From assembly GCA_964473155.1 (NCBI GenBank), contig CAYYNT010000003.1, positions 69,839 to 133,838 on the forward strand: a stretch of 64,000 nucleotides of DNA, written 5' to 3'. Each line of letters starts with the position of its first letter. Position 1 is the stretch's first letter. Origin of the DNA: an uncultured Gemmatimonadales bacterium (GTDB lineage Bacteria; Gemmatimonadota; Glassbacteria; GWA2-58-10). The translations under genes and the position numbers were made by a program. Below are positions 19,722 through 43,790 of this stretch, piece after piece. The notes beneath the pieces were generated by a model. That model made no database searches. It was not told where the DNA came from and worked only from the letters and a program-made list of their open reading frames with translations.

Positions 19722-20076
19722 TGGTGGAGGCGGTGGGCATCGAACCCACGTCCGAAGACAGGCCGGATATGACCACTACATGCTTAGCCGCCGTTCAGGT
19801 TGTCGTCCTCAAAAGACTACGTCGGCAAGTCTATCTCGGACCATCCGGTTAAGGTCTCGCCCGGAAGTCACCGGCATACAGCCAGGCCAGCCCGTTTTTG
19901 CGACGTCCGTCACCGCTCCACGGGCGGGGATCCTGTGACGGACGTGGATGCCTTTATCAGGCAGCCAGGGCCAAGTTGTCGTTGGCAGTTGTGTTTTTTC
20001 CCGTTTTTTAACGGGGCACGGGGCCCCGGCATGCTGTCATAACCTCCCTTGTCCCCGTCGAAACCATGTCGCCCCC
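19722..20076 (-). ncRNA. ssrA: tmRNA (SsrA), about 355 nt, tag peptide ANDNLALAA
   Basis: Minus-strand 5' end GGGGGCGACATGGTTTCGACGGGG and 3' end GGACGTGGGTTCGATGCCCACCGCCTCCACCA (tRNA-like domain with a G3:U70 Ala identity pair and encoded CCA). Internal ORF GCC AAC GAC AAC TTG GCC CTG GCT GCC TGA TAA = ANDNLALAA** at plus coordinates 19975-19943. Confidence 0.9.
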
Positions 20077-26879: not shown

Positions 26880-26928
26880 CCTGGTAATCTCCTTGATGAA
26901 TATAAAAGAAAAAGAGAATCAATAATTT

Positions 26929-29900
26929 TCAGCGACTAAGTAAGGCTTTGCCTGTGGCCTCCACCTCCTCGGTGTTATCGAATGCCTCATTAACAGGCCT
27001 GCAGATAATCTTATATAAATATACTCCGTTTGCAACCTTTTCCTGATATTCATCCCGCCCGTCCCAGCGGACCCGGTTGAAACCCGCGGATGCTCCAAAC
27101 ATTCGAAGCTCGCGCACCGGACGTCCGGCCACGCTGAATATCCGGATCAGCACATCCGCCGGGGAACCGAGGTCGAAACATATATCTGTCTCATCGCGGA
27201 ACGGATTGGGATAGTTCAAAACGTTGGCCAGACTCAGCGAGGTTCCGGACTGGCTGACATACAGCATTATTTCTGTCCGGCTCGCATTCAGCGCATTGTC
27301 CGCCGCTCTGAACCTGAAACTGTGCAATCCCTCACTCACCGGATTCAGGCTGACTTCCAGACTGCCCTCCTGATAACTGTCCGTATTGTAGCGGAAATAC
27401 GGTGTAAGATCGGTCGAATAAGATGTTCCCGCATCCACCTCAAGGGCTACCTGATAACCGGGGCTTCCCGTGGTGTTGATCCCGCTCTCGTCTTTCAGGG
27501 CCAGGATCAGCGGACTTCCTTTTGAGATACGGTCCCCGTCGCGCAGCTCACGGCCTTTATAAAGAACGCGTATTTCAGGGCCCGCGCTGTCTGAAAGCTC
27601 AGCGTTCCGCCCTGAAACCTGCATCCTCTGGCCGGCTCCTGAAGCATCGATGCTCTCACTGGTTGAATAACCGATGAACCGTCCGCTGCCAGCGGCCAGA
27701 CTGTCCGAAACTGTCGCCGAAGAAAGGTTCAAGGGCATAATGAACGCCCCGCTGAACCGTCCTCCACTGACTGTCACCCCCCCGTCAAAAAGAACCGACC
27801 CCGCTGGAACGAATTGCACTGCCCGATCAGTTGTGACACCGTACCAGTAACACTGGTACGGGATTGTTACTTTCCTGGAATCACTAAGGAATTTAATCTG
27901 CGCCACGCCTGAAAAACCTGTCTCTATCTGTCCTCCGTTATTCAACACGCTCCCGCTGAACTCTGCCTTTCCGCCGGGTTTAAGCTGTCCGGCTCCGTCA
28001 AGGCTGATACTCATACGGCCTGCCGGTGAATGCAGCAGAAGGGCCGGGTCGCCGAACACCGTGTACTGAGCCGAATTGCTGTACTCGGCGCTTCCCATTC
28101 CCAGGCGGGCCTGAAGCGCCGCCTCACCCAGTGTAACCGCCTCCGTGCCGAACAGTTTCTGCACCAGGAGACGGTTGAGGGCCAGGTTCTGCCCGGCGTA
28201 TGTCACCCGAGTCCCTGCGTATACCGCAATCGCTCCGCCGCCGGAGGCTGTCAGCAAACGCTCTGCCATCGCATCCGTACGATAGCTGTCGAAATAGCCT
28301 ATCGAGCAGGATGAATTAAGCACGAGCGGCAACTTGTATCCGTTGGTCAATAACGGCAAATCCCGTTCCACATCGAACAAAAGCTCCTGAGACCACTGTG
28401 TCGGTCCGCCGTGTCCGATATAGTTGACAAGCAGCGCCCCGCGGTTCCACCATTCCACCAGCTCGCGCGATGCAGACGGTTTCCGCGAGCCGATTTCCGG
28501 CGGATCGAAAGGATAGCTGTCAAGGTACACTTTTTTCCGCACCAATTCCTCGGGTAAAAGCGAATCGATCGATTCGCTGCCCGCGACATGGCCGGAGACG
28601 TCATCGCATGCGCCGCCGGATACATAACCGTCATCCGCGGACAGGATTACGCGACGCACCCAGTCGCCTCGCTCACCGCCCTGTTCGTAACGCGCGACCT
28701 TGTCCGCCACAACCGACGCATCAGCCGCTTTCTGCACCGGGATGCGGCCCAGAGAAATCTGAGGCAGACCGCCGCTTTCGAACCTGACGAACCATTCATC
28801 GTAGGCGACATCTCCGCTGCTGATATATGGGATGATATGATTCGGCCTCGCACGGCCCTCCCCGGTCCAGCCCCTGAAATCATTGTGCCCGTCGCCGAAC
28901 AGCACGGCGAATCGCGGCCGCACGGGCCAGGCATCGAAAGCGTAATGAAGGAAATTCCTGACTGCGGCCGGATCTTTCTGCCCCAGGCCGAATTCATCGT
29001 AAATATCTTCAACAGTGACTACCTGCGTGGAAAAACGCGCCGCGCGCGAAGCCGCAAGCGAACCTGCCTGCGTGGAAAGGGCGCGCGGCGTGATGACCAC
29101 ATATTCAGCGCCGGACATACGTCGCAGGCCGGGAGGATCAAAAAGAGCTATAGAGGCCGGGGCAGCGTAAGCCGAATCAGTCAGCACCACAAAAGAGCGT
29201 AACGGACTGGCGGAGGATGGCAGCGAAAACCTCACCCCGGCGCTGTTCCGTTCGAGGCCTGTCAACAGGACAGGATTCCCGGGGCGGGTGATGTCATAGA
29301 CCTCGGTTTCCCGCGGCTGCGCCTCGGAAATCTGATACACGGACTGACCTTCCGGCCTGACATGATACTCCACTTGGCCTTTGCCATCCATCACGAGAGC
29401 GGTGTTCATGCGCAATTCCACGAATCCCGTGATCCAGTTCAATCCTGAAAGGATAAACCGGTTGCCGCCCTCTATCAAGCAGTTCTCCGGAAGGTTAAGC
29501 CAGTCAGTTGTGAAAATTCTGGCGTCAAATGTGTTGCCGAATCCCAGTTGCATACCGTTAAGGTTTGCATTCCAGTAAACGCTTGCATAACGGGCCTTCC
29601 CGTAAAACTGGCAGCGCAGTTTATTGCCGTTTGAAAGCGGGACGGCCGGGACATTCAGCGTGCGTTCGCGAATGTCCGGACTGTCCCCCGTTTCCACCCA
29701 GGCCCAGAAATCCGGCGACAGATTAAATTTGGACTCCTCACCCTGGAGATCGCTTAAATAGATGTTGTTGCGTTCGAAATGGAACCAGCGCTCTCCGGAT
29801 GTCACTGCCGGCGCTGCGGCGTCAGGGATCGCCGCAATCTCTTGCATGCGCAAACCGGAAGCGCCCGGGTCTCCCCAGGACAGCCAGTAAACAGCCCGGT

Positions 29901-30960
29901 TGTCATAGCGATGGACCAGGCTGCTCACCGCTCCGGTGTCATCCACGCTGAACCGGTCAAGCCCCTGGCCGTAGAAAATCACGCGGTCTCCCTGACCAAA
30001 AGAACCATCGGCCACTCCAGTCACCCGTATCGCCACCTCATGAAGATCCGGCATATCGGCTGACGGGTCTTCGTCCTGCATTTTCCCGCCGCTGAAATAG
30101 AGGCGAAGGCTGGAGGGAGCGATTCCGGAAATTTCTACGCCCGAGGCCAGAAGAGCGGCCCCGCTGATTGAATAAACACCGGAGGAATCGATTCGAACCG
30201 CGGCCCAGTGCGGCGCGCGGTCGAAAGGCGATGCGGAGGATGCTGCAAGACGGGTGCGCGGAGTAAGCCAGGCCCCGGCGCTCCGCCAGTTCAGAAAAGC
30301 CCCCCTGACAAAAGGGTCCGCAAGGCCATCGGGGCGATCGGATGGGCTGTTCGATTCCGCTGAAAGCTGACCGCTGAAAGAGATATCGATATCCATACGG
30401 CGGCGGATCGTGAGCCTGCCGTTTGACGGGTCATAACTGAAGGGATAGACCGTAAGCTGAAGAACTCTGTATTCGCGGAACTGGAAAGGACCGGACAGAA
30501 CGAGCGGTTCTTCCGGGTGTTCCCCACCCTGAAGATATTCCTGCCCAAAAGCCGGAAGGGAAAGCGATTCCCGGCTTTCATTCTCATCTCCCGGCGGGGC
30601 AAGGGCCGGAAAAAGCGCGCCGGTTCTTGCAAAAGTCCTGTCCTCTCCGGATATGGAACCTCTTGCCGCACAACCGGGAGGGACAACCAGCGCCACGCTG
30701 TAACACGGCATGGAGGGATAGCCCGGACGGCTGATCACCTCGGCCCCATCCGCCTCAATCCTCGTGTAGTCTGCGCCGCGCCATGAGAAAGGTTCGAGCG
30801 ACCATGCGGGAAGCTCGAATGTCAGACGCACGCCATCCTGTCCGGAGGACAGCAGGGAAAACGGTTGCTCCCCGGCTCTCAGCACAACCGGAAATGAGGC
30901 GAGGACCATGATCAATGCAGCCCCGAGGGCTGCCAACAGTTTAATCCGTCCGGCTCTCAA
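26929..30960 (-). CDS. peptidase C25 (gingipain/PorU-like) protein with a T9SS C-terminal sorting domain; candidate T9SS C-terminal signal peptidase
   Basis: Catalytic-domain start YVVITPRAL...VEDIYDEFG...AVRNFLHYA...FAVLFGDG. Clan CD His/Cys dyad in NYIGHGGPTQW and LNSSCSIGYFD. CTD: NVLNYPNPFRDETDICFDL...VLIRIFSVAGRPV...WDGRD...GVYLYKI. Confidence 0.7.
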   Translation of the reverse strand: MRAGRIKLLAALGAALIMVLASFPVVLRAGEQPFSLLSSGQDGVRLTFELPAWSLEPFSWRGADYTRIEADGAEVISRPGYPSMPCYSVALVVPPGCAARGSISGEDRTFARTGALFPALAPPGDENESRESLSLPAFGQEYLQGGEHPEEPLVLSGPFQFREYRVLQLTVYPFSYDPSNGRLTIRRRMDIDISFSGQLSAESNSPSDRPDGLADPFVRGAFLNWRSAGAWLTPRTRLAASSASPFDRAPHWAAVRIDSSGVYSISGAALLASGVEISGIAPSSLRLYFSGGKMQDEDPSADMPDLHEVAIRVTGVADGSFGQGDRVIFYGQGLDRFSVDDTGAVSSLVHRYDNRAVYWLSWGDPGASGLRMQEIAAIPDAAAPAVTSGERWFHFERNNIYLSDLQGEESKFNLSPDFWAWVETGDSPDIRERTLNVPAVPLSNGNKLRCQFYGKARYASVYWNANLNGMQLGFGNTFDARIFTTDWLNLPENCLIEGGNRFILSGLNWITGFVELRMNTALVMDGKGQVEYHVRPEGQSVYQISEAQPRETEVYDITRPGNPVLLTGLERNSAGVRFSLPSSASPLRSFVVLTDSAYAAPASIALFDPPGLRRMSGAEYVVITPRALSTQAGSLAASRAARFSTQVVTVEDIYDEFGLGQKDPAAVRNFLHYAFDAWPVRPRFAVLFGDGHNDFRGWTGEGRARPNHIIPYISSGDVAYDEWFVRFESGGLPQISLGRIPVQKAADASVVADKVARYEQGGERGDWVRRVILSADDGYVSGGACDDVSGHVAGSESIDSLLPEELVRKKVYLDSYPFDPPEIGSRKPSASRELVEWWNRGALLVNYIGHGGPTQWSQELLFDVERDLPLLTNGYKLPLVLNSSCSIGYFDSYRTDAMAERLLTASGGGAIAVYAGTRVTYAGQNLALNRLLVQKLFGTEAVTLGEAALQARLGMGSAEYSNSAQYTVFGDPALLLHSPAGRMSISLDGAGQLKPGGKAEFSGSVLNNGGQIETGFSGVAQIKFLSDSRKVTIPYQCYWYGVTTDRAVQFVPAGSVLFDGGVTVSGGRFSGAFIMPLNLSSATVSDSLAAGSGRFIGYSTSESIDASGAGQRMQVSGRNAELSDSAGPEIRVLYKGRELRDGDRISKGSPLILALKDESGINTTGSPGYQVALEVDAGTSYSTDLTPYFRYNTDSYQEGSLEVSLNPVSEGLHSFRFRAADNALNASRTEIMLYVSQSGTSLSLANVLNYPNPFRDETDICFDLGSPADVLIRIFSVAGRPVRELRMFGASAGFNRVRWDGRDEYQEKVANGVYLYKIICRPVNEAFDNTEEVEATGKALLSR

Positions 30961-30974
30961 GACATCCCCGGGGC

Positions 30975-31157
30975 TTAGAATGACCTGGCCTCATCGATCA
31001 GCATGATCGGTATGTCATCCTTGATATCATAAATCAGGCGGCAGGCGTGACAGACCAGCTCATTCTGGTCCTGACGGTATTCGAGGTCCCCTTTGCATTT
31101 AGGACAAACCAGGATTTCAAGCAGTTTCGGGTCCAGCATCCTGTCCTCCGTTTGCAA
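30975..31157 (-). CDS. Trm112/YcaR-like small zinc-ribbon protein
   Basis: [14 protein letters not shown]...[25 protein letters not shown] matches the Trm112 (DUF343) pattern. Confidence 0.6.
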
Positions 31158-32235: not shown

Positions 32236-32312
<77 letters not shown>

Positions 32313-32491: not shown

Positions 32492-32632
32492 TCAGAAGGC
32501 TTTCCTTTCCTTGCGCGGACGTATTGAGATCGTGGTCTTGCAGGCTATGCAGTTGAAGAGGTACAGAAAACGGTCCGCTTTCAGCGTGACCGGCTGCTTG
32601 CCCAGATAGACCAGATTCTTGTGTTTGCACAT
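32492..32632 (-). CDS. small (46 aa) zinc-ribbon protein
   Basis: Strong SD GGGAGAAGGAAA before the ATG. MCKHKNLVYLGKQPVTLKADRFLYLFNCIACKTTISIRPRKERKAF (CxxH...CxxC). Confidence 0.4.
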   Translation of the reverse strand: MCKHKNLVYLGKQPVTLKADRFLYLFNCIACKTTISIRPRKERKAF

Positions 32633-32903
32633 TTTCCTTCTCCCAGTAACTGACATATTTACCTCTTCTGCTGTATTCGAATTAAATAGCAATAATTGTA
32701 CCATATATTACAGTACACTCCGCCTGTTGTTTCATTTCTTTAAAATTCTTTACCTGATTGCTGACGAGGGAAAATCACTGCTTCCGTTCCACGCAATATA
32801 AACGAGATATGATTCTCTTTTACTGAAACATTGGAAAAAACCGCCGGGTGAGCAGATACCGGGGGATTGGTCTGATGGATTTAAGGGAAGAGGATGGAGG
32901 CTT

Positions 32904-33800
32904 TCATTTGCCTGAACGCCGGGTGCTGGCCCGATCCAGGATATTTTTTTCCGAGCGGCTCAGGCTGTGGATGCCCTGCGCATTTATCTTGTCCAGGATG
33001 CGGTTGACCTCATCCTGCTCGTTCTTCTCCTGTTCAATCTCGCGCGTGACGAGACGGATCTGGCGGCGGCGCTTTCGGTCGTGCCAGGCGGCGGCAAGCC
33101 TGGTAAACTGCCACTCTTTTTTCAGATAAAGATAACCGATCAGCATCCCGCTCAGGTGCGCGAAATGAGCTATCCCTGAGGGAGTCCAGCTCAGCCAGAA
33201 CTCTATCGCCGCAAGTATCAGAACGAAATATTTCGCCTTGAGCGGAAAGATCAGCATGAACAGAATCTGACGTTCCGGGAACAGAAGGCCATAGGCGGCC
33301 AGAAGGCCGAAAATAGCTCCGCTGGAGCCGATCAGGGCCTGTCCTGGAAGGCCGGCGCGGATCGGCAGTGACCAGTCCGAGGCGAATATCCAGTACAGCA
33401 GGCCCGCTCCCGCCCCGGTGATGAAGAAGAAAATCAGAAATTCCCGGCTGCCCCAGGTGCGCTCCAGTTCCGAGCCGAACATCCAGAGCGCGAACATGTT
33501 GAACAGAAGATGCCACAGGCTGCCGTGAACGAAGATGTAAGTGACGAACTGCCAGAGGAAGAACCGCTCGTTGACAAGTTGAGGGGTCAACCCGAAAACA
33601 GTCACCCATAGTGAGCTGCCCGCCGCCATCCGCAACATGCCATCGACAATGAACGAGCCGGCACAGGCAATCAGCAGGTATTTTACCGAGGGGCTGACGC
33701 CACCGCCCAGAATATAGCCCGGCTGTTCGTAATAAGTGTTGTAGCGCAAGCTGTCGCTCTCCTGATCCGGTTTCTCACCAGCGGCGGCCGAAACGCGCAC
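32904..33800 (-). CDS. rhomboid-family intramembrane serine protease
   Basis: GxSG active site (GSSGAIFGLLAAYG) and the catalytic His in AHFAHLSGMLIGY. The 5' end overlaps the upstream gene by 26 nt, so the true start may be internal. Confidence 0.75.
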   Translation of the reverse strand: MRVSAAAGEKPDQESDSLRYNTYYEQPGYILGGGVSPSVKYLLIACAGSFIVDGMLRMAAGSSLWVTVFGLTPQLVNERFFLWQFVTYIFVHGSLWHLLFNMFALWMFGSELERTWGSREFLIFFFITGAGAGLLYWIFASDWSLPIRAGLPGQALIGSSGAIFGLLAAYGLLFPERQILFMLIFPLKAKYFVLILAAIEFWLSWTPSGIAHFAHLSGMLIGYLYLKKEWQFTRLAAAWHDRKRRRQIRLVTREIEQEKNEQDEVNRILDKINAQGIHSLSRSEKNILDRASTRRSGK

Positions 33801-36132
33801 TCAACAACGCAAGCACGGCCAGCGCGACCGCTGCAACCAGGCTGACAATAACGCCGAGCCTGAAAGAATCAGAAACATAGGCGAAATGCACAATATGGTT
33901 TCCTGCTTCAAGAGCTACACCGCGCAGAGCATAATCGGTCCGGAGAACGGCTACCGGCGTTCCATCCACCCAGGCTTTCCAGGCCGGGTACTCCCACTCG
34001 CTCAGGACCAGTATGCCAGCCGCGGGGCTCTTTGTCTCCACCGTTATTTCATTCTGTGCATAACTTTTAATCACAGCTTCAGATTCAATATGCTCCTGCG
34101 TGGAGGGGGTGTCAATGCCGGGTTCTGTCTCCAGAACGGCCTCGCTGCGGTGGTCGAATGACGGGTCGTTCAGGGTGGCGAGAATTGAAGCGTCATCCTT
34201 GAGCACTCTCCATCTGTGAAGCAGGAACGCCCGCGGAAGGTAGGCGCCGTGGGCGGCAAGCCCCACGCTGCGGGATTCATAATTGATTGCGATTTTATAC
34301 TTCACATTAAGAAGGTCGAACTGGCGATCAACCTGCACCTCGCCAAGACGGCGCTTGAGTTGCAAGGGATTGTATCCCTCGAGCAGAAACAGACGGGCGA
34401 TGCTGCCCTGGTTCCGCGGCAGCACCATCACACCAGGGTTTTCGAGGCTGCGCGCGTTCACCCGGAACAATTCTCTATCCAGGTCTTTTTTCAGTTCTTT
34501 GACCATGGGAGTGTCGGCATAGTAGACCGCCGGATCTGTATCACCGGCCAGGAACGGCCGCCCGAACGAGGCCAACTCCACGAACGTGCACAATACTATC
34601 GACCCGGCCCAGGCAAAGGTAAATCTTCCGGATCGTCCGGCCGGCCACAGAATCAACGCCGCAAGGGCAGTCCACATTATCGATTCAAGCACTGCACCCG
34701 AGGCCATGGCTTTGACCTCCGGACGCAACAGCGCTCCATCGCAAAGCCCGTTCAACGCACCGGCTTTCAACAGCACGAACAGAACCAGGAGAACTCCTCC
34801 GGAACCCGCGGCCAAGAACATAGGACCGTGTATGGCCCTCCCCTCCCCGGATTTCGTTTTTCTTAAAAGCGCCTCGCAGCCATACGCGGCAAGCATGGCT
34901 AGGGCGAAGGAAACCAGAGCTGCAAACCGTCCCGGTATGCGGAACCGTCCGAAACCAGGCGCGAACTCGAAAAACAGACGGTACAGTCCGCCGTACTTGC
35001 CCAGGGCCAGCAGAAGGCTCGATGCAGCCAGCACGGCATGGAACCGCACGCTCCTGTCCCGTCGAATGCCGCTCAACGCCCAAAGCGCAAGCGTGAGGGG
35101 CAAAACTCCAACAAACAGGCATGTCTCCCAGAATGCGCTGTAACCACCGGCCCAGTAAGTATTTGCTGTCGGGAGCTGACGGCCGAAAAATCCCGGACTG
35201 AGGAGCTTGACAAGGAAAAGAGGATGCAGCGAATGCTCCGCCGAGGCCTCCCAGGTCATACTGCTGCGCGGGGTATAACGGGCCAGTTCGGCTGCGGGCA
35301 ACCAGTTGAACGCGTTGAGCCCCACCCCGAACGCCGCCACGGCCACGAGCACAGCCAGTCGTTTAATCGTGCCTGACAAGCTCCAGCCGTTCTCCCGGTG
35401 CACCTCCAGCTCGTGACAAAGCCACTGGAGTCCCAGTACATAGCAGATATAAAGCGTGTACTGCGGATACCCCCCCATTGTGCTTACACCCAGCGCCAAA
35501 GCGCAAAGCACGGCCCAGCGGTGACGGCCCGTGTCAAGAGCGCGCTGGAACATTTCCAGGATCAGCGGCAACCAGACAAACACGTTGATGAAATTAAGGT
35601 GTATCGCATGGGTGACCAGAAAACCGCTGAAAGCGAAAATCACTGCGCCCAGAAGGCTGGATTCTGCGGATAGCTTGAGATATCGGAGGTAGCGGAAACT
35701 GAACCAGGCCGCCAGGAAAAAATGGAACACGAGGAAGAACTGCACGACCCGCGGGCTGAGACTGTCCGGCCCGGCGAACAGGGTCTGCAAAAGGTTGAAT
35801 GGATAGAGCACCGCGGTCTGAATGTCGGCGAAAAAGGGCATTCCCCCGAAAACATAGGGATTCCAGAACGGAAACTCTCCCCTGATTATCGAGGTGGCGG
35901 CGAAGAAACGCACCGGGTATGTGAACTGTATGAAATCCTCCCAGAGCCAGGCGCGTCCAGATTTCAGGGGAGTGAGATATTGCCAGAAAAACACCGCCGC
36001 CAGCCCGGCAAGAATCACTAACGGATAGCTCCGCTCAAGATTGAACGCGCGGCGCCCTGCAGTGCTGTCTGACTGTCCCCGTCTCGGGCTATCTTGATTG
36101 GCTCGCTGCCTGTCAGTCTTTCTGGAGGTCAT
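33775..36132 (-). CDS. polytopic membrane protein, YfhO-like (GT-C fold glycosyltransferase candidate)
   Basis: More than 10 TM helices. N-terminal DFIQFTYPVRFF...GEFPFWNPYVFGGMPFFADIQTAVLYP resembles the YfhO family. 4-nt overlap with the upstream GT2 gene. Confidence 0.55.
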   Translation of the reverse strand: MTSRKTDRQRANQDSPRRGQSDSTAGRRAFNLERSYPLVILAGLAAVFFWQYLTPLKSGRAWLWEDFIQFTYPVRFFAATSIIRGEFPFWNPYVFGGMPFFADIQTAVLYPFNLLQTLFAGPDSLSPRVVQFFLVFHFFLAAWFSFRYLRYLKLSAESSLLGAVIFAFSGFLVTHAIHLNFINVFVWLPLILEMFQRALDTGRHRWAVLCALALGVSTMGGYPQYTLYICYVLGLQWLCHELEVHRENGWSLSGTIKRLAVLVAVAAFGVGLNAFNWLPAAELARYTPRSSMTWEASAEHSLHPLFLVKLLSPGFFGRQLPTANTYWAGGYSAFWETCLFVGVLPLTLALWALSGIRRDRSVRFHAVLAASSLLLALGKYGGLYRLFFEFAPGFGRFRIPGRFAALVSFALAMLAAYGCEALLRKTKSGEGRAIHGPMFLAAGSGGVLLVLFVLLKAGALNGLCDGALLRPEVKAMASGAVLESIMWTALAALILWPAGRSGRFTFAWAGSIVLCTFVELASFGRPFLAGDTDPAVYYADTPMVKELKKDLDRELFRVNARSLENPGVMVLPRNQGSIARLFLLEGYNPLQLKRRLGEVQVDRQFDLLNVKYKIAINYESRSVGLAAHGAYLPRAFLLHRWRVLKDDASILATLNDPSFDHRSEAVLETEPGIDTPSTQEHIESEAVIKSYAQNEITVETKSPAAGILVLSEWEYPAWKAWVDGTPVAVLRTDYALRGVALEAGNHIVHFAYVSDSFRLGVIVSLVAAVALAVLALLSARFGRRW

Positions 36133-36908
36133 CGGCTGTACAATCCACGGCGGTCGTTCAACCAGATGGCAAAAAGCTCGGAAAAGCAGGTGAAAACATT
36201 TTTAAGCAGGCGAACCCGAGTGGCCTCGTCATTGGCCCACTCCACCGGGACTTCCTGCACCGCGAATCCCTGCCGGTCGGCAATCACGATTATCTCTGTG
36301 TCGTAGCTCCAGCCGCTTATCCGCTGGCTGCCGAATACGGGTCCGATGCTGCGCCGGCTGAAACATTTGAAACCGCAGGTGAAATCGCTGATTTTTAAAC
36401 CGAAAATTGCATTGCTCAACCAGGTGAACACCTTGCCCATATTTTCACGATATTTAGGCTGATGTTTGACAATCCTGGCTGAATCCACCTTGCGCGTACC
36501 GATTATCACATCCTTCCCGGCCTCTATCAGCGGCTGGAAACGTTCGAGCATCTCAATCGGCGTTGACAGATCGGCGTCCATGAAAACGGCGTACTGCCCG
36601 CGCGAGGCCAGCATACCGGTCTTTACAGCAAAGCCCTTACCGGAGTTACGGCCATAGCCCTCCAGCCGAACGTTCACATCGGGGTTCTGGAACGACCCGG
36701 CCACCTGGCGGGTGCCGTCCCGGCTCCCGTCATCCACCACCACTATCTCGCTGGAATAACTCTGGCCCCGCAAATATCGAATGACCGCCTCCAGCGTCCC
36801 GCCGATACGTTTTTCCTCATTATAGGCCGGGATCACCACACTCAGAAAAACTGTCCCCTGCTCCAAGTCATTCTCCCCAGTCATCTCGATTCCGTTCATG
36901 CGAAACAA
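36129..36908 (-). CDS. GT2-family polyprenyl-phosphate glycosyltransferase (DPM1/GtrB/CsbB-like)
   Basis: LSVVIPAYNEEKRI...EIVVVDDGSRDGT...MDADLSTP motifs. Confidence 0.8.
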   Translation of the reverse strand: MFRMNGIEMTGENDLEQGTVFLSVVIPAYNEEKRIGGTLEAVIRYLRGQSYSSEIVVVDDGSRDGTRQVAGSFQNPDVNVRLEGYGRNSGKGFAVKTGMLASRGQYAVFMDADLSTPIEMLERFQPLIEAGKDVIIGTRKVDSARIVKHQPKYRENMGKVFTWLSNAIFGLKISDFTCGFKCFSRRSIGPVFGSQRISGWSYDTEIIVIADRQGFAVQEVPVEWANDEATRVRLLKNVFTCFSELFAIWLNDRRGLYSR

Positions 36909-36933
36909 TCCCGGCGCTCTCAGAGCGGCCAGT

Positions 36934-37674
36934 CTAATCCGGACGGGTGCAAAGACAGATCAGCGACTTGCCGAACGGGAAGCCGGGCCGCGGCAGAAAA
37001 TGTCTCTCAAAACTGAAGATGCGGTGAAAAATCCAGTTCAAGGGCCTGTTGAAATCCGGATAACAGTTCTTTTCTTTCAACGGAGCGCGAAAACGGTCAA
37101 GAACTATGTCGATCAGCGCCAGAGGAAACAGTATGGAATTGAAATGCGTGATGAAATCCAGGCGGAACCCGGCCCCCTGAAGCAGTTTACTCAGCGAGCG
37201 AGTCGTATAGCGTCGGTAATGCCCGAATACTACATCCCGGCTGGTCCATTGCCAGCGGTCGGCAGGAACCGAGAGCAGCAGTTTTCCGTGTCCTGGTTTG
37301 AGCATGCGCAGGAGTTCTTTCGCCACCTGTCTGTCATCCTCGATATGTTCCGCCACATCCAGGCAGAGGAGAGCATCGAAACCACTATCACGGAAGGGCA
37401 GCCGAAGACTGTCTCCACGGACCAGTTGTTTCAGTCCCCTGTTTCTCGTGAACTGGAGGGCTTCAAGGGAAAAATCGAAGCTCACGGCCTCGACGCCCAG
37501 GGATTCTGCCAGACGGCTTGTGGCTCCGGGGCCACAACCGACATTCAGCAGCCGGCCGCCTTCATGCAGAAACCCGCGCAACAGTCGCTCCAGGATCACC
37601 AGACGGCCGCTGTAAAGCCAGTAACTGTCCTCGCGGCTGTCAAACTCCTGCATGATCTGTTCATTGTCTTTCAT
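36934..37674 (-). CDS. class I SAM-dependent methyltransferase
   Basis: LLNVGCGPGATS motif I, followed by D-x-F-D and an acidic loop. Confidence 0.75.
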   Translation of the reverse strand: MKDNEQIMQEFDSREDSYWLYSGRLVILERLLRGFLHEGGRLLNVGCGPGATSRLAESLGVEAVSFDFSLEALQFTRNRGLKQLVRGDSLRLPFRDSGFDALLCLDVAEHIEDDRQVAKELLRMLKPGHGKLLLSVPADRWQWTSRDVVFGHYRRYTTRSLSKLLQGAGFRLDFITHFNSILFPLALIDIVLDRFRAPLKEKNCYPDFNRPLNWIFHRIFSFERHFLPRPGFPFGKSLICLCTRPD

Positions 37675-39194
37675 CGGGCATCCCCGGCGCCTGGATCAGC
37701 CTTCCGTATCCCCGAGGAATCAGGAACGGTCGCGCCGCTGTCCGCGGCCGGGGGAACCTGCGCCGGGACTATCTCTCCCCTGCGGATCTCAAGAATGTAT
37801 GTCTTACGCTCCACCCGGCCATCCGCGGCCACAGAGTATTGACCGTAAGCCCCGCGCATACCGGATACGCTTGTCAGCGCTTTTGCCAGACCTTTGCGGC
37901 TGACCGGGAAAGCTCCGGCTGCTTCAAGGATCATCTCGGCGGAATCGTAGCCGAGAGCTGAAAACCTGTTCACCGGACGGTTGTATTTCTGTTCGTATTC
38001 AGATTTGAAACTCTCCCAGGACAGTTCCCTGGCGCCCTCGTAGAAAGGAGAGGCGATAATAACACCCTCCACATACTCCCCGCCCATGCGCAGGACACGC
38101 TCGCTGCGCCACGCCTCTGTCCCTATGATACGCGATTGCTCCAGACCGTAATAATGGATCTGCGAGGCGATCTGTGTTATATCGTTTAAATCCGCCGGGA
38201 TGAAAATCGCATCCGGAAGGTAACGCTGAAGAAAAGTCATCTGGCTGTCAAATTTATTATTATCTCCGCTGTAACGAAGATTCGCCACTACTGAACCGCC
38301 GCTTTTATGTACTGCATCTCTGAAACCCGCGGCCAGCATCGCGCCCCTTTCAGTCTCAGGGGCAAGAATGGCGAAAATCTGCAATCCCAGGTCCCGCACG
38401 GCGAAAGAAGTCAGACGGAGCAACTCGGCTGGATCGGCGCGATTTATGGCATGCACCAGCGGACCCAGGCCGATAAGCGACGGGGAATCGGCGGTCGGGC
38501 AAACCAGCGGCAGCCCGAGGCTCGATGCCGCCATTGCCAGGGACAGAGTCGCCTCATCCTGGTGCGATCCGATCAAGGCGGCCACAAGGCTGTCCTTTGC
38601 CAGTTCACGCCCGGCCGTGGCGGCGATCACCGGGTCGGACTGGTCATCCCGAAACAGCAGCTCGATCCGGCTTCCCTCCCCGTGTCCAGAGTTGTAACGG
38701 TCAACCGCTATCTGGATGCCTTCCTGAATCGCCTTGCCGAAATCGGCGTAACGGCCGCTGAGCGGAAGTATCACTCCAATCTTTCTGCAACTGCCCGGGA
38801 TATTATCATCAACGGCAATATCCGTTCGGGATTCCGTATGTCCCAGAACAGCAAGAAGCTCGGCTGTCTGAGCCTGAGGTATTCTGGTTCTGAGTGCGAC
38901 ATAAAGTGAATCCGCCGCCTCCCGGCGGCCGAGAGCAAGACGGGCCCGCATTCCGTAGTACAGTCCGAGGAAAGCCATCTGGCTGTCCGCGGGTGACAGT
39001 CCGGCAATGAGCCGGTCGAAGCTGTAAATCGACTGTTCAAACCTTCCTCCGCCGAACTGCTCCAGTCCGTTCGTGAAGTCGGCATAGACAGCTTGCTGCC
39101 TGCGGTCCGGCTTGTCCGGGCCAGCCAGAACAAAACACGGCAGGAGGATTGAGATTAAAGCCGTAGCAATAATTAGTGACGGCGCTGATTTCAT
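37671..39194 (-). CDS. secreted protein with type I periplasmic-binding fold (LivJ/LpoA-like) and an N-terminal helical region
   Basis: Signal peptide. KIGVILPLSGRYADFGKAIQEGIQIAVDRYN...IGSHQDEATLSLAMAA resembles Peripla_BP_6. Confidence 0.55.
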   Translation of the reverse strand: MKSAPSLIIATALISILLPCFVLAGPDKPDRRQQAVYADFTNGLEQFGGGRFEQSIYSFDRLIAGLSPADSQMAFLGLYYGMRARLALGRREAADSLYVALRTRIPQAQTAELLAVLGHTESRTDIAVDDNIPGSCRKIGVILPLSGRYADFGKAIQEGIQIAVDRYNSGHGEGSRIELLFRDDQSDPVIAATAGRELAKDSLVAALIGSHQDEATLSLAMAASSLGLPLVCPTADSPSLIGLGPLVHAINRADPAELLRLTSFAVRDLGLQIFAILAPETERGAMLAAGFRDAVHKSGGSVVANLRYSGDNNKFDSQMTFLQRYLPDAIFIPADLNDITQIASQIHYYGLEQSRIIGTEAWRSERVLRMGGEYVEGVIIASPFYEGARELSWESFKSEYEQKYNRPVNRFSALGYDSAEMILEAAGAFPVSRKGLAKALTSVSGMRGAYGQYSVAADGRVERKTYILEIRRGEIVPAQVPPAADSGATVPDSSGIRKADPGAGDAR

Positions 39195-39295
39195 GTGCTC
39201 CGAACCTTCCGGTACGCAGGAAACAGTGATAATGAATGATTGAAAACTAAAAATATTCTGAAACAGACACTATTTCAACTCTAAACTTATCGATT

Positions 39296-39328
39296 CAAAA
39301 AGAATGGGCGCACCGGAAGCGCGCCCAT
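39296..39328 (-). terminator. rho-independent terminator of rpsA
   Basis: ATGGGCGC-loop-GCGCCCAT followed on the minus strand by TCTTTTTG. Confidence 0.6.
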
Positions 39329-39397
39329 CACAGCAAACGAGTGGAACAAACTTAATCTGACGCTGAATCGACCGTAATCGCCTGACGTTCACTCCGC

Positions 39398-41386
39398 TTA
39401 TTCGGCCGCTTCAGTCCCTTTCTCATCCTTAACCTGTTCCTCAACCTCAACTGCACCCTCATTCTCCTCAGCCGCCTTCTTCCTCTTCTTCGGCTCGCTC
39501 TTCTTTTCCTCTGCCGGAGCCTCAACTTCAGCCTGACCCTCTTCAACCACTGCCACTTCAGGCTCATCATCCTGTGTCTTAAGCTGTTCCTTGGCGTAAC
39601 GCTTGGCCTCCGCCATGTCACGCACCGCCAGGACAATGCGGTGGTTCTGCGGGTCGTTCTCGATGATCTTGAGTTTCAGTTCATCCTCGATCTTGTAAAC
39701 ATCAGCCGGGTTGCTGACCGTACCCTTGAGACCGAGCTGAGAGATGGGAACGAACCCCTCGATGTCATCGCCGAGATCGACAACGACACCCTTTTCCAGC
39801 AGACGCACGATAGGCGAATCAACCTCGGTGCCGACCGGATACTTCTCTCCGATCTGCTCCCACGGATTATCGGCAAGCTGCTTCATGCCCAGGCTGATAC
39901 GCTTGTTGTCGATATCCATGTTGAGCACCACCACCTTGACCTTGTCGCCCTTCTTGACAATCTCGCTGGGGTGATGGATACGCTTGGTCCAGGACATATC
40001 GGAGATGTGCACCAGCCCGTCGATACCCTCCTCGATCTCGACAAAAGCTCCGTAGGAGGTAAGGTTGCGCACACGGCCCTCGATGACTGTGCCGACCGGG
40101 TATTTCTGGTTGAGAGTCTGCCACGGATCGGCCTCGGTCTGCTTGATGCCGAGCGATATCTTCTCTTCCTCCGGGTTGATCGAGAGGACGACAGCCTCGA
40201 CGATGTCCCCGATGGCCACGACTTTGCTGGGGTGGCGGATATGACGGGTCCAGCTCATCTCGGAGATGTGCACCAGGCCCTCGATACCCTTCTCCAACTC
40301 CACGAAAGCGCCGTAATTGGTGATCGAGACAACCTTGCCCTTCACTCTGGAGCCGACCGGATACTTGGCCGCGGCGTTCTCCCAAGGATAAGGAGTAAGC
40401 TGCTTGTGGCCAAGGCTGATACGGCCGTTCTCGAAATCGAGGTCCAGTATCTTGACATTGATCTTGTCGCCCAGGGCCACCATCTCGCTCGGGTGCGCCA
40501 CACGGCCCCAGGACATATCCGTGATATGCAGGAGCCCATCCACGCCGCCCAGATCGATGAACGCGCCGAAATCCGTGATATTCTTGACCACGCCCTCGCG
40601 GGTCTGACCGACTTCCAGTTCCTGAAGCAGTTTCTCTTTCTTTTCCTCGCGCTCGCTTTCGAGGATCACGCGACGGCTGATCACGATGTTGCGGCGGCGC
40701 TTGTTAATCTTGATGATCTTGAACTTGAAGGTCTGTCCCATCAGCTCGTCAAGGTTCGGAATACGGCGCAGGGCGATCTGGCTGCCGGGCAGGAACGCAT
40801 CCACTCCCAGCAGGTCGACCACCACGCCGCCCTTGATCCGGCGGACCAAGGTGCCCTCGACCAGCTCGTCATTCTCGTGCGCAGTGCGTATATGGTCCCA
40901 GACACGAATGAAATCGGCCTTCTTCTTGGACAGGACGATGATGCCATCCTCATCCTCGAGGCTCTCCAGGAACACCTCGACCTCATCGCCTACATGAACT
41001 TCATCCAGAGTTTTGAACTCATCGAGGGAGATCGTCCCCTCGCTCTTGAAGCCTATATCCAGGACCGCCTGAGTCTCGGTGATACGCAACACACGGCCCT
41101 TGATCACCTGGCCTTCCTCGATGCTGGACATCGTGGACTCGTACATCCCCATCATGCGATTGTACTCGTCCTTGCTGTACTCGATGCCCTCATCCAGCAT
41201 CTGCCAGTACTCTTCGTCCTCCTCAACCGGCTTCTTGGCAGCGGATGAAGCCTTCACTTCAGCTTCTTTCACATCCTCGGCAACGGCTTCGGCAGCCGCC
41301 TCGACCGGCATTTCCGCACTTGTCACTTCAGCCTCGGACTGGACATCCGCCTGAGGGTTATCGGGGTTTTTTCCCAACTCCGCCAT
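39398..41386 (-). CDS. rpsA: 30S ribosomal protein S1 (six S1 domains) with an acidic/lysine-rich C-terminal extension
   Basis: Six repeats of the S1 OB fold. RBS AAGGAGATACCC before the ATG. Confidence 0.95.
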   Translation of the reverse strand: MAELGKNPDNPQADVQSEAEVTSAEMPVEAAAEAVAEDVKEAEVKASSAAKKPVEEDEEYWQMLDEGIEYSKDEYNRMMGMYESTMSSIEEGQVIKGRVLRITETQAVLDIGFKSEGTISLDEFKTLDEVHVGDEVEVFLESLEDEDGIIVLSKKKADFIRVWDHIRTAHENDELVEGTLVRRIKGGVVVDLLGVDAFLPGSQIALRRIPNLDELMGQTFKFKIIKINKRRRNIVISRRVILESEREEKKEKLLQELEVGQTREGVVKNITDFGAFIDLGGVDGLLHITDMSWGRVAHPSEMVALGDKINVKILDLDFENGRISLGHKQLTPYPWENAAAKYPVGSRVKGKVVSITNYGAFVELEKGIEGLVHISEMSWTRHIRHPSKVVAIGDIVEAVVLSINPEEEKISLGIKQTEADPWQTLNQKYPVGTVIEGRVRNLTSYGAFVEIEEGIDGLVHISDMSWTKRIHHPSEIVKKGDKVKVVVLNMDIDNKRISLGMKQLADNPWEQIGEKYPVGTEVDSPIVRLLEKGVVVDLGDDIEGFVPISQLGLKGTVSNPADVYKIEDELKLKIIENDPQNHRIVLAVRDMAEAKRYAKEQLKTQDDEPEVAVVEEGQAEVEAPAEEKKSEPKKRKKAAEENEGAVEVEEQVKDEKGTEAAE

Positions 41387-41513: not shown

Positions 41514-42200
41514 TCATTGCTTGCCGGACTTTTCGTTATCCAAGCAGTTTTTCTGGAGTTCAGCAATGCGCTGCATCACCATTTCAGCAATGGCGATCTG
41601 CCCTTTGGGATTGTGCTCAAAAGATTCATATTCAGCAGGCGGGATCGGGCGTCCATACAGCACCCGCATCGGACGGCGGCGCAGGAAAGCCTCCTTGAGG
41701 CGGGCGGTGCCGCGCAGGAAAGCCGGCACTATCGTCGCTCCGGTCTCCTGAGCCAGCATCCCCACGCCGAATTTGGGTTGCCTCAGGCTGTCCTCCGGTC
41801 CGCGGGTGCCCTCCGGGAAAAGGATCACCACGCCCTCCCGGGCCAGGATGTCCTTGAGCGATGCAATGGCAGTCCAGTCCATCACTCCCCGGCGGATGGG
41901 GACGGTGTTGTAGAAACGGATCAGTCCACCGAAGAAAAAATTCCGGAACAGCTCACGCTTTCCAAGGAAAAATATCTCCCGCGGCACTGAGCAGCCCACG
42001 GCGGGTGGATCGAAATAGCTGACATGGTTCGAGGCGATTATAACCGGTCCATCCGCCGGAAACTTCTCCTGATGAATGAACCGCGCTCCAAAAAACAGCC
42101 GGAGAAAAAATCGCACCAGCATCTGAGAGAACCTGTAAACATTACGGTATTTAATTTTGCCTGGCTTTTCATGGCTCATGACTGTACATTCCTGTGTCAT
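41514..42200 (-). CDS. plsC: 1-acyl-sn-glycerol-3-phosphate acyltransferase
   Basis: NHVSYFD (HX4D) and FPEGTRG motifs. Confidence 0.85.
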   Translation of the reverse strand: MTQECTVMSHEKPGKIKYRNVYRFSQMLVRFFLRLFFGARFIHQEKFPADGPVIIASNHVSYFDPPAVGCSVPREIFFLGKRELFRNFFFGGLIRFYNTVPIRRGVMDWTAIASLKDILAREGVVILFPEGTRGPEDSLRQPKFGVGMLAQETGATIVPAFLRGTARLKEAFLRRRPMRVLYGRPIPPAEYESFEHNPKGQIAIAEMVMQRIAELQKNCLDNEKSGKQ

Positions 42201-42251
42201 CTTTTGAGTTTGAAATCCATTTCCCCTGCGGCGGGGTCAATTTAGTCCGAA

Positions 42252-43790
42252 ATGCGTCTTCGAGCAATACATATCGCCCCGCTGTCAAGCGGCCTGCTGC
42301 TTGTGTTGAGTTTCCCGCCATTTAATCTCTATTTGCCGCCTTTCATCGCCCTGACACCTCTGTTCGCTTTTCTGGAGCAGGAGCGCTCGTCATACCGGGC
42401 CGTCGCCGGCGCGTTCGCCTGCGGACTGGTGTTCTGGGGCGGCCTTCTCTACTGGGTCACCCTGTTCACGGATGCCGGGTTCGTGGTGCTGATCATTATC
42501 ATGTCGGCAAACCTGGCGTTGTTCACCCTCATCACCCGCCGTCTGCAAAGCCGTTTCGGCCTGTCCCTCTGCCTGAGCGCCCCGTTTGTCTGGACCGCAA
42601 TCGACTACATCCACGCACATGGCGACCTGGCGTTCACCTGGGGCCAGCCGGTTTACAGTCTGACCGGATTCCCTCTTATCATCCAGTTTGCCTCTCTCTG
42701 TGGGCCTTATGGAGTCACTTTCTGGCTGGTTGCAGTAAACGCCGCTTTTTATGAAACTATCAAGCGCCGCGCCGGAGGGGTCTCCATTCGCAGACCTCTG
42801 GCCGCTGCAGCCCTGCTGTTCGCCCTGCCGCTGTCCTTCGGCATGGTGTCATACCTGAATTCAGCCAGGATAGAAAAAGCCGCCCCCACAATGCGTATCA
42901 GCTATGTGCAGCCCAGCATCCCCCAGGACCTTAAATGGTCGGAGGGAATGCGCGACACCACTTTCCAGATTCTTAGCCAGCTTTCATTGTCCCAGGCCGG
43001 CTCCAAACCGGACCTGGTGGTCTGGCCCGAGGCCGCAGCGCCTGCATACCTTCGCACAGACCGCCGCTGGCGTGAGTATGTGGGCGGCGTTGCCGGCAGT
43101 CTTGGCTGCAACCTTATCACCGGCGCTCCGGAGTACCATTTCCACGAAAACCGCAAGGATTACGATTCATTCAACTCGGCTTTTCTTTTCGGACCGGAAG
43201 GGGCAATCCGGGGGAAATACGATAAAATTCACATGGTCCCGATGAGCGAAAAGATTCCTTTCGAAGGCTATCTTCCGAGCCTGAGAAAAATCGATGTGGG
43301 AGGATCGCATTTCGTGCCTGGAGACAGCCTGGTGGTTTTCCGGACTGAGAAGGGAGATTTCGGCGCGCTGATCTGTTTCGAATCGATATTCCCGGAAATA
43401 AGCCGCGGGATGGTTATAAAAGGAGCGCAATGTATCCTTAACATCACCAACGACGCATGGTTCGAGCGCACCAGCGCCGCATATCAGCACAGCGCTTTCC
43501 TCGTCCTGCGGGCGATTGAAAACCGACGTGAAATAGTCCGCTCGGCCAACACCGGAGTGAGCGCGTTCTACGACCGCCTCGGGCGGCGGCGCGCCGCAAC
43601 GAAACTTTACGAGCGCACCGCTTCGACATCCGAGATACATCTGTTCAACTGCCGCACCCTTTACAACCGTCTGAGTGACTGGCCGGCCCACATCTGCTGG
43701 CTACTGACCCTTGCCGCGCTGATCCTGAGTTTCTTCCGTCCTCCTGTCAGAACCTGCGGTCCCGGAGAAGAGCTATTTAAGCAACTCTGA
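42252..43790 (+). CDS. lnt: apolipoprotein N-acyltransferase
   Basis: N-terminal multi-TM region and C-terminal CN-hydrolase domain (WPE...K...LICFESIFPE catalytic Cys). Confidence 0.85.
   Translation: MRLRAIHIAPLSSGLLLVLSFPPFNLYLPPFIALTPLFAFLEQERSSYRAVAGAFACGLVFWGGLLYWVTLFTDAGFVVLIIIMSANLALFTLITRRLQSRFGLSLCLSAPFVWTAIDYIHAHGDLAFTWGQPVYSLTGFPLIIQFASLCGPYGVTFWLVAVNAAFYETIKRRAGGVSIRRPLAAAALLFALPLSFGMVSYLNSARIEKAAPTMRISYVQPSIPQDLKWSEGMRDTTFQILSQLSLSQAGSKPDLVVWPEAAAPAYLRTDRRWREYVGGVAGSLGCNLITGAPEYHFHENRKDYDSFNSAFLFGPEGAIRGKYDKIHMVPMSEKIPFEGYLPSLRKIDVGGSHFVPGDSLVVFRTEKGDFGALICFESIFPEISRGMVIKGAQCILNITNDAWFERTSAAYQHSAFLVLRAIENRREIVRSANTGVSAFYDRLGRRRAATKLYERTASTSEIHLFNCRTLYNRLSDWPAHICWLLTLAALILSFFRPPVRTCGPGEELFKQL

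Follow-up and report, generated by a model that had tools for sequence, protein, structure and literature searches.

Three-component glycosylation systems follow a simple logic: a glycosyltransferase (GT) of the GT-A type loads a sugar onto polyprenyl phosphate, the product is exported by a flippase, and a GT-C enzyme then transfers the sugar. To our knowledge, GT-C enzymes of the YfhO type have been characterised only in Firmicutes, in the decoration of teichoic acids and of surface proteins. There, together with a partner of family GT2, they glycosylate teichoic acids and Ser/Thr-rich protein regions (PMC5836110, PMC8035078, PMC12041528); the CsbB/GtcA/YfhO systems of Bacillus subtilis, Staphylococcus aureus, and Listeria, for example, add N-acetylglucosamine to lipoteichoic or wall teichoic acid (PMC5836110, PMC8035078). 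This work concerns a cluster of five genes in a stretch of 64,000 nucleotides (nt) of contig CAYYNT010000003.1 (assembly GCA_964473155.1, an uncultured Gemmatimonadales bacterium of the Glassbacteria lineage), hereafter the window, in which a GT2 gene adjoins the gene of a YfhO-family protein. The cluster is best read as an operon with its own promoter, whose core, the GT2 and the YfhO protein, would form a lipid-carrier-dependent pathway for periplasmic glycosylation, a reading to which we give a probability of about 70%. The locus is a variant of a known pathway type and not a categorically new one.

How does it compare with the systems already described? As in the CsbB/GtcA/YfhO systems, the GT2 gene adjoins that of the YfhO GT-C, the same two-step polyprenyl-phosphate sugar logic is predicted, and the YfhO protein has a polytopic N-terminal part, an extracytoplasmic C-terminal domain, and a last transmembrane (TM) helix. 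Unlike in those systems, the host is a diderm of the Glassbacteria/Gemmatimonadota type, with no teichoic acids; the GT2 is without the two C-terminal TM helices of CsbB and GtrB; no GtrA/GtcA is encoded within the 64 kb; and there are extra genes, for a binding-fold lipoprotein, a rhomboid, and, optionally, a methyltransferase. The streptococcal pairs GtrB/PgtC2 and PgfS/PgfM1 (PMC12041528) likewise combine a GT2, of which PgfS is the best NCBIfam match of the enzyme described here, with a YfhO-family GT-C, and a secreted lipoprotein with a disordered tail, a conceivable acceptor, is co-encoded. In contrast to the streptococcal systems, the scores are far below the family cutoffs, and the locus has no poly-Ser/Thr tract, no epimerase, and no second GT-C.

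The elements of the locus, in the order of transcription, are the following (bp, base pairs; aa, amino acids; SAM, S-adenosylmethionine).

39303-39329, minus strand: intrinsic rpsA terminator, stem of 12 bp (7 G-C pairs), loop of 3 nt, then CTTTTTGAAT
39250-39278, minus strand: candidate sigma-70-like promoter, TTGAAA-17-TATTTT, past the rpsA terminator and ahead of the first cluster gene
37671-39194, minus strand: gene of the secreted binding-fold protein, 507 aa, Peripla_BP_6 with E 1.3e-47
36934-37674, minus strand: gene of a class I SAM methyltransferase, 246 aa, Methyltransf_11/23/25
36129-36899 counted from ATG, minus strand: GT2 gene, 256 aa, Glycos_transf_2 with E 5e-30
33775-36132, minus strand: YfhO-family gene, 785 aa, PF09586 with 62.6 bits
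32904-33749, start revised to TTG, minus strand: gene of a rhomboid protease with a C-terminal DUF6576, Rhomboid (PF01694) with E 4.4e-32 and DUF6576 with E 2.6e-10
32841-32855, minus strand: weak terminator-like hairpin and T run, 5-bp stem, ~50 nt past the rhomboid stop

The five open reading frames (ORFs) and their place after the rpsA terminator agree with a first-pass annotation of the window, made from the sequence alone. The gene rpsA occupies 39398-41386 on the minus strand, and its G+C-rich hairpin and T run, read from 39329 to 39303, follow ~70 nt past the stop. Because this terminator and then a sigma-70-like site separate rpsA from the first gene, the cluster probably has its own promoter; the candidate matches the sigma-70 consensus at 9 of 12 positions, a consensus that may not be that of this phylum. 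The annotation had also described 4-nt overlaps among the first four genes. ATGA start/stop overlaps do occur at two of the three junctions, binding protein/methyltransferase and GT2/YfhO, but the middle one, between methyltransferase and GT2, is a gap of 25-34 nt. For the GT2, a start at TTG 36908 would give 259 aa and one at ATG 36899 gives 256 aa, the latter being more likely. The rhomboid gene, confirmed by both of its profiles, most likely starts at the TTG at 33749, which has AGGAG ahead of it, lies 25 nt past the YfhO stop, and yields a protein of 281 aa, homologues having 276-285 aa; a GTG start at 33800 would make this ORF overlap YfhO by 26 nt. The hairpin beyond it is a possible end of the operon, on weak evidence. 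A search of Rfam gave no regulatory RNA within or near the cluster.

The first pillar of the proposed pathway is the 785-aa protein, which is a YfhO-family GT-C by profile and by fold. Its match to PF09586 (cutoff 28.5 bits, E 3.2e-17) spans residues 84-427 only, and the likeness to the Firmicute YfhO is remote; of 322 homologues detected, nearly all match the same profile. No YfhO structure was detectable by sequence in the PDB at E<=1. When the AlphaFold model (predicted local distance difference test, pLDDT, 91; predicted template modelling score 0.91) was compared with the PDB by Foldseek, all 22 matches at E<=1e-3 were GT-C enzymes with probability 1.0 (STT3, AftD, EmbA/B, AglB, AftA, ArnT, and PglB), and Pmt4 and ALG12 followed just above E 1e-3, also with probability 1.0. 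Transporters entered the list only at E>0.05 and with probability <0.2. The large protein had been called YfhO-like in the first place, with an unrelated transporter as the alternative to be checked; a profile match above the curated threshold and a GT-C fold decide for the former.

A hydropathy scan gives ~13 TM helices, with TM1 at residues 38-56 and a dozen further segments to ~495; the last helix lies at ~755-781, with 759-777 as its span in the scan, after a periplasmic beta-sandwich domain at about 610-752. In the model, D66 stands directly after TM1, at the start of the first loop helix. This residue, part of a W-E-D triplet, is invariant across 30 homologues from several phyla with 27-68% identity, and the same alignment shows the highly conserved motif FWNPYVFGGMPFFAD at residues 89-103, in which W90, N91, P92, G97, and P99 are invariant. 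Since the N-terminus before TM1 is strongly basic, the positive-inside rule suggests that the D66 loop faces the periplasm. D66 would then be the conserved acidic residue that GT-C enzymes have in the first extracytoplasmic loop, with a putative catalytic role. As for base composition, the AT skew is strongly positive (0.18) over the YfhO gene, at window positions 34001-36000, consistent with the T-rich coding strand of a membrane protein gene on the minus strand.

The second pillar is the GT2, a protein of GT-A fold matching Glycos_transf_2 (PF00535). Its best PDB matches are GtrB, DPMS, and ArnC, and its best NCBIfam matches are PgfS, at the top, PpgS, a haloarchaeal dolichyl-phosphate (Dol-P) hexose transferase, AglJ, and ArnC, all with scores far below the equivalog cutoffs (at best 76 bits versus 500). 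Because the top characterised matches all load a sugar onto polyprenyl monophosphate, the protein is a putative polyprenyl-phosphate sugar synthase. It aligns with residues 10-187 of the 341 of GtrB and shares NEE, DDGSxD, RNxGK, DAD, and DF(K/R) with it, the C-terminal part falling on the acceptor-loop region of GtrB. The initial label of a GtrB/CsbB-like GT2 holds for these polyprenyl-phosphate transferase motifs and for the GT-A domain, but not for the architecture: the hydropathy scan finds no hydrophobic segment across 259 aa, the protein ends at ~residue 256 versus 341 aa for GtrB and 374 aa for DPMS, and the two anchoring helices at the C-terminus are absent. Its family has 240-280 aa, with 45-53% identity across Chloroflexia, Omnitrophica, and Elusimicrobiota, and several source databases name it dolichyl-phosphate beta-glucosyltransferase, names that are annotation labels and not assays.

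GT2 enzymes of the ALG5/DPM1 and PpgS types have ~230-260 aa, are without, or nearly without, membrane anchors, and make monophosphoryl lipid-linked sugar donors for GT-C enzymes. Given the absence of membrane helices, the window GT2 is better described as ALG5/DPM1-like than as GtrB/CsbB-like, that is, as a putative TM-less polyprenyl-phosphate hexose synthase. The ALG5/DPM1-type synthases and the mycobacterial PpgS, whose partner GT-C is Rv3779, are short GT2 proteins as well, and PpgS and the haloarchaeal Dol-P hexose transferase align with the window GT2 over nearly the full length; unlike these enzymes, it scores far below their NCBIfam equivalog cutoffs (61 versus 370 bits). The literature searched contained nothing relevant on a bacterial ALG5 or on a Bacteroidota O-oligosaccharyltransferase.

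Gene context supports the assignment of this GT2 as a donor synthase for GT-C enzymes. Orthologues with 34-44% identity, also TM-less, are found among YfhO, GT87, TMEM260-like, PMT_2, and MptA/B genes in Desulfobacteria and other groups. One Desulfobacteria locus runs methyltransferase, YfhO, GT87, second methyltransferase, short GT2, B12 radical SAM, YdjC; another runs TMEM260-like, short GT2, SGNH/AlgX-like, YfhO, YfhO. A homologue with 49% identity sits between an MptA/B-family gene and a PMT_2 gene, and one with 44% identity, in locus L091, lies amid three PMT_2 genes, one PMT, one YfhO, and one PTPS_related. A GT-C-type neighbour was missing in one of three look-ups of GT2 homologues.

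The most interesting element of the locus is the methyltransferase, in that its partnership with GT2 and GT-C genes crosses phyla and appears undescribed in the literature searched, where no link between YfhO systems and a methyltransferase was found. The protein has no signal peptide. Its family shares the SAM-binding motif GCG.G and a conserved C-terminal extension made of H.RRY, a hydrophobic stretch (residues 174-192 here), and PFG.S; full-length homologues have 30-36% identity and 235-250 aa. The DVU_1556 methyltransferase family and a UbiE, MenG, or BioC identity were tried and rejected, as all fall far below the NCBIfam cutoffs.

Within its own clade the gene is far from constant. We compared seven Glassbacteria loci (L001, L002, L003, L009, L042, L172, and L173), with YfhO identities of 48-68%. 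The methyltransferase is present only in the window and in its closest relative, L003 (73% identity), where it sits exactly between the binding protein and the GT2. In L001, L009, L042, L172, and L173 the binding protein is followed directly by the GT2; since five of the seven loci have this arrangement, the simplest reading is that the methyltransferase is a recent insertion in this sub-lineage, an accessory gene. The earlier proposal that it belongs to the module thus stands in part: the enzyme is of class I, it is present at the locus, and its family recurs beside GT2 and GT-C genes elsewhere, but most of the Glassbacteria loci do without it.

Outside the clade, methyltransferase homologues directly abut YfhO genes in Kapabacteria/Bacteroidota (L008, L029, L031, L034, L048), Desulfobacteria (L046, L052), and Chloroflexi (L058), and in four more loci one lies at most 6 kb from a YfhO gene. 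In L091, a homologue with 33% identity overlaps the ALG5-like GT2 by 4 nt. A reciprocal scan of metagenome contigs, with a methyltransferase profile built from 7 sequences and the neighbourhood taken as three genes, gave 54 loci with at least 2 flanking genes. A GT2 was found in 23 of these, a polytopic protein (at least 400 aa with at least 6 hydrophobic segments) in 28, one or both in 36, and both in 15, all raw counts without a matched control family; the YfhO profile matched in 8 of the 54 and the GtrA profile in 7. Pfam assigned the 40 polytopic neighbours to YfhO (7), PMT_2 (5), PMT (3), DUF2079 (2), PIG-V-like (2), PTPS_related (1), and GT87 (1), with only three transporter-type proteins among them. 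These neighbourhoods suggest that the methyltransferase family is a recurrent partner of GT2/GT-C modules in several phyla. As a separate observation, L091 (1-12729, GCA_040960215.1) is a dense island of GT-C-like genes around a translationally coupled methyltransferase-GT2 pair homologous to that of the window.

What could such an enzyme do? SAM is found only in the cytoplasm and the protein lacks a signal peptide, so the most economical role would be modification of the lipid-linked sugar before export. A precedent exists in Haloferax, where AglP methylates lipid-linked glycans at the cytoplasmic face. As there, a class I SAM methyltransferase is encoded with genes for lipid-carrier glycosylation, a likeness seen in gene neighbourhoods; unlike there, the enzyme would presumably act on one sugar linked to a monophosphate carrier.

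The following scheme can be proposed. At the cytoplasmic face of the inner membrane, the TM-less GT2 would use a nucleotide sugar to form polyprenyl-monophosphate-hexose, as homology and context suggest. In this sub-lineage only, the methyltransferase, with its hydrophobic C-terminal segment, may next modify the lipid-linked sugar with SAM before export, most likely by O-methylation. A flippase encoded elsewhere would then move the glycolipid across the membrane, and the YfhO GT-C, its acidic loop in the periplasm, would transfer the sugar to an envelope acceptor, be it LPS, peptidoglycan, a protein, or secretion cargo, and may engage it with the aid of its C-terminal beta-sandwich domain. The genes of the lipoprotein and of the rhomboid are conserved in the clade and would be co-transcribed with those of these enzymes, the lipoprotein possibly acting as acceptor or as a partner in acceptor recognition. 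The two-step logic at the centre of the scheme, in which a GT2 makes a lipid-linked sugar and a YfhO GT-C transfers it outside the cytoplasm, had been put forward from the start and is supported by the matches of the GT2 and by the GT-C profile and fold.

A broader version can be formulated, in which a membrane-associated family of SAM methyltransferases would be an undescribed fourth component that methylates the polyprenyl-phosphate sugar in the cytoplasm for YfhO and other GT-C enzymes in many phyla, the Glassbacteria pathway being tied also to the binding-fold lipoprotein, as acceptor or adaptor, and to the rhomboid. We consider this full version quite unlikely, but if true, it would be the first time that a YfhO enzyme of a diderm is assigned a function. 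The matter is of some reach: the distribution of the YfhO family extends widely into diderm phyla (Glassbacteria/Gemmatimonadota, Fibrobacterota, Ignavibacteria/Kapabacteria, and Desulfobacteria) and takes in Chloroflexi; its partner in these phyla is a TM-less ALG5/DPM1-like synthase, often joined by a member of one methyltransferase family. Should the partnership with the methyltransferase be functional, it would point to an undescribed route to methylated envelope sugars. The locus supplies a concrete gene set for heterologous hosts; for the window alone, the gain is mainly a better annotation.

Several observations weigh against the proposed pathway. Only a single clade has the binding protein and the rhomboid beside the GT2-YfhO pair, and conservation there is equally high for Lnt, the acyltransferase, and rpsA; the synteny of the two with the pair may reflect shared ancestry rather than function. 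Of 80 YfhO loci in other genomes, about half lack a GT2 gene within 10 kb, and the closest YfhO homologues outside the clade have different neighbours, UbiA and LpxB in WOR-3 and, in Fibrobacterota, a preceding TMEM260-like GT-C, sometimes with GtrA, GT4, a TM-bearing GT2, and GT9. The GT2 is without the TM helices of GtrB and CsbB, so that its membrane association is assumed. A flippase of the GtrA type, encoded near the GT-A and GT-C genes in three-component systems, is absent from the window: a hidden Markov model built from four GtrA proteins of related loci gave no match below E=1 among the ORFs of at least 70 aa. In the reciprocal scan, 18 of the 54 loci show no glycosylation gene nearby, and the substrate of the methyltransferase is a guess.

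The Fibrobacterota loci have an arrangement of their own. In L006 (4663-14506) and L007 (5110-10346), both of Fibrobacterota/Chitinispirillaceae, YfhO always comes after a TMEM260-like GT-C of ~930 aa with TPR repeats, and this pair lies downstream of riboflavin genes and nusB; the YfhO of L006 is also accompanied by GtrA, GT4, LPG_synthase_TM, GT2, and GT9.

Could it be that the GT2 and YfhO alone form a functional pair, the genes of the binding-fold lipoprotein and of the rhomboid being independent housekeeping genes of the envelope that by chance share a conserved block and transcript with it? We hold this to be slightly short of an even chance. In the Glassbacteria, the order binding protein, GT2, YfhO is kept in all seven loci wherever the contig reaches, with the rhomboid always next in those that reach so far, so that the expected synteny in relatives is real, the methyltransferase excepted; three protein searches point to this arrangement on a dozen contigs more. 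On the longer contigs, however, Lnt, the acyltransferase, and rpsA stand upstream. Since these housekeeping genes are equally conserved, the synteny would denote a stable block, from Lnt to the rhomboid, rather than a specific functional link of the binding protein or the rhomboid. The upstream pair itself, a PlsC-type acyltransferase on the minus strand and, divergent from it, the Lnt apolipoprotein N-acyltransferase on the plus strand (41514-43790), lies directly upstream of rpsA and is kept in every Glassbacteria locus examined.

The nature of the binding protein also fits an independent function. After the signal peptide come an N-domain of five helices (residues 31-116) and a class I periplasmic-binding fold of the ordinary LivJ type (138-477), in a model with pLDDT 77 (70-88 in the N-domain). 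The early description as a signal-peptide protein with a type I periplasmic-binding fold was accurate, as Peripla_BP_6, the Foldseek match (3hut, TMt 0.90), and the PDB profile search, led by LivJ/LivK-type proteins (3td9, E 1.7e-44), all indicate. The protein is predicted to be secreted and, in most orthologues, to be a lipoprotein, as most have an A-C-G lipobox, the signal sequence in the window being less canonical. Orthologues (41-82% identity) occur in the Glassbacteria clade alone, and no homologue was found at any of the 80 YfhO loci from other genomes. The next relatives have 25-28% identity and 600-690 aa, combine TPR with the binding fold, and match LppC weakly; one is encoded behind hrcA-grpE-dnaK, where no genes for glycosylation are close by.

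Within such an explanation, the lipoprotein might be an orphan protein for amino-acid binding or sensing, or a scaffold with an LpoA-like architecture. LpoA, the outer-membrane lipoprotein activator of PBP1A, likewise has an N-domain, in its case of helical repeats, ahead of a class I periplasmic-binding fold, and no transporter partner; here, in contrast, there is no LppC match, the N-domain has only ~90 residues, and only the domain order is alike. Identity with LpoA was rejected, as PF04348 (LppC) gave no match at E<=0.01 and LpoA was absent from the PDB profile search (E<=1) and from the top 50 fold matches.

The rhomboid protease, predicted downstream of YfhO from the outset, carries the motifs GSSGAIFG and AHLSGMLIG in its translation, with the GxSG serine and the downstream histidine recognisable by inspection. 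Outside the clade a rhomboid occurs at one of the 80 YfhO loci, 8 kb away and on the other strand; adjacency to YfhO outside Glassbacteria thus has no support among these loci.

Against the independence of the flanking genes speak the very short gaps after the binding protein (ATGA overlaps in the window and L003, ~20 nt in the other loci), and the way in which the region past the rhomboid varies from genome to genome (DUF362/DUF6599, a sulfatase, or Era directly) whereas the four genes remain side by side. Moreover, the binding protein has no partner of the usual kind nearby: neither the window, in its annotated ORFs, nor the syntenic loci contain a gene for an ABC permease or ATPase. The lipoprotein may be the acceptor or an adaptor for acceptor recognition; the support for this role consists of the tight gene spacing and the Pro/Ala/Ser tail. 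An acceptor or adaptor role has been speculated for small GT-C systems (PMC8035078). Membership of the binding protein and the rhomboid in the module is unproven.

A second explanation places the acceptor on proteins. In streptococci, the YfhO-family enzymes PgtC2 and PgfM1, in the systems GtrB/PgtC2 and PgfS/PgfM1, O-glycosylate disordered Ser/Thr-rich regions of lipoproteins and membrane proteins (PMC12041528), and the cluster might do the same on disordered Ser/Thr/Pro-rich regions, the tail of the lipoprotein included. In line with this, the GT2 has PgfS as its best match and the YfhO protein matches PgfM2 and PgfM1, but weakly, with NCBIfam scores far below the cutoffs (27 versus 1500 bits). 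The tail of the lipoprotein, residues 483-507 here, is disordered, 25-45 residues long, and rich in Pro/Ala/Ser in every orthologue, and a D-(S/T)-(A/I/L/V/M/T) triplet occurs in 11 of 21 orthologue tails. However, these tails are modest in Ser/Thr (1-13 residues), and that of the window has no such triplet; as a glycosylation site of the Bacteroidota type, the tail is therefore no more than a weak lead. Sequence does not tell a protein acceptor from a glycan or lipid acceptor, and we regard protein O-glycosylation as rather unlikely.

The least convincing alternative, in which the GT2 and the methyltransferase would be soluble cytoplasmic enzymes making a methylated glycoside or polysaccharide precursor (for instance of the glucosyl-3-phosphoglycerate or methylglucose type) uncoupled from YfhO, could appeal to the absence of a TM helix in the GT2 and to its secondary matches to glucosyl- and mannosyl-3-phosphoglycerate synthases, but it is highly improbable, for these matches are weaker than those to polyprenyl-phosphate transferases and cover the N-terminal half only, the C-terminal part aligns with the GtrB acceptor loop, the GT2 and YfhO genes share an ATGA overlap, and both enzyme families recur beside GT-C genes in unrelated phyla.

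The surroundings of the cluster deserve a few words. The window as a whole is a housekeeping stretch of the chromosome, and the closest homologues belong to assemblies named Candidatus Glassbacteria or Gemmatimonadota. Past the weak hairpin come tRNA-Lys (32237-32312), Era, a Trm112-like zinc ribbon, and PorU-like and PorV-like genes of type IX secretion. The gap of 590 nt between the rhomboid gene and tRNA-Lys holds a small, unannotated ORF with Cys/His residues (CKHK...NCIAC, 32492-32704, minus strand) that shows no sign of being a gene. Between Era and the PorU-like gene lies a 60-aa ORF for a zinc ribbon of the Trm112/UPF0434 type (CPKC...CHAC, 30975-31157, minus strand), matching the 54-aa Trm112p genes called in L001 and L003. 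The type IX secretion components, ~2 kb downstream of the cluster and syntenic in relatives, occupy 25875-30960 on the minus strand: a Peptidase_C25 protein of 1343 aa with a propeptide and a C-terminal FlgD_ig-like domain (PorU-like), then an outer-membrane protein of PorV type.

Farther away, two very large ORFs on the minus strand, 13644-17267 (1207 aa), which precedes a DUF4159 gene, and 56356-59931 (1191 aa), lack any Pfam match at E<=1e-4. The AT skew is strongly negative (-0.23) at window positions 14001-16000. Finally, a tmRNA gene at 19722-20076 on the minus strand encodes the tag peptide ANDNLALAA.

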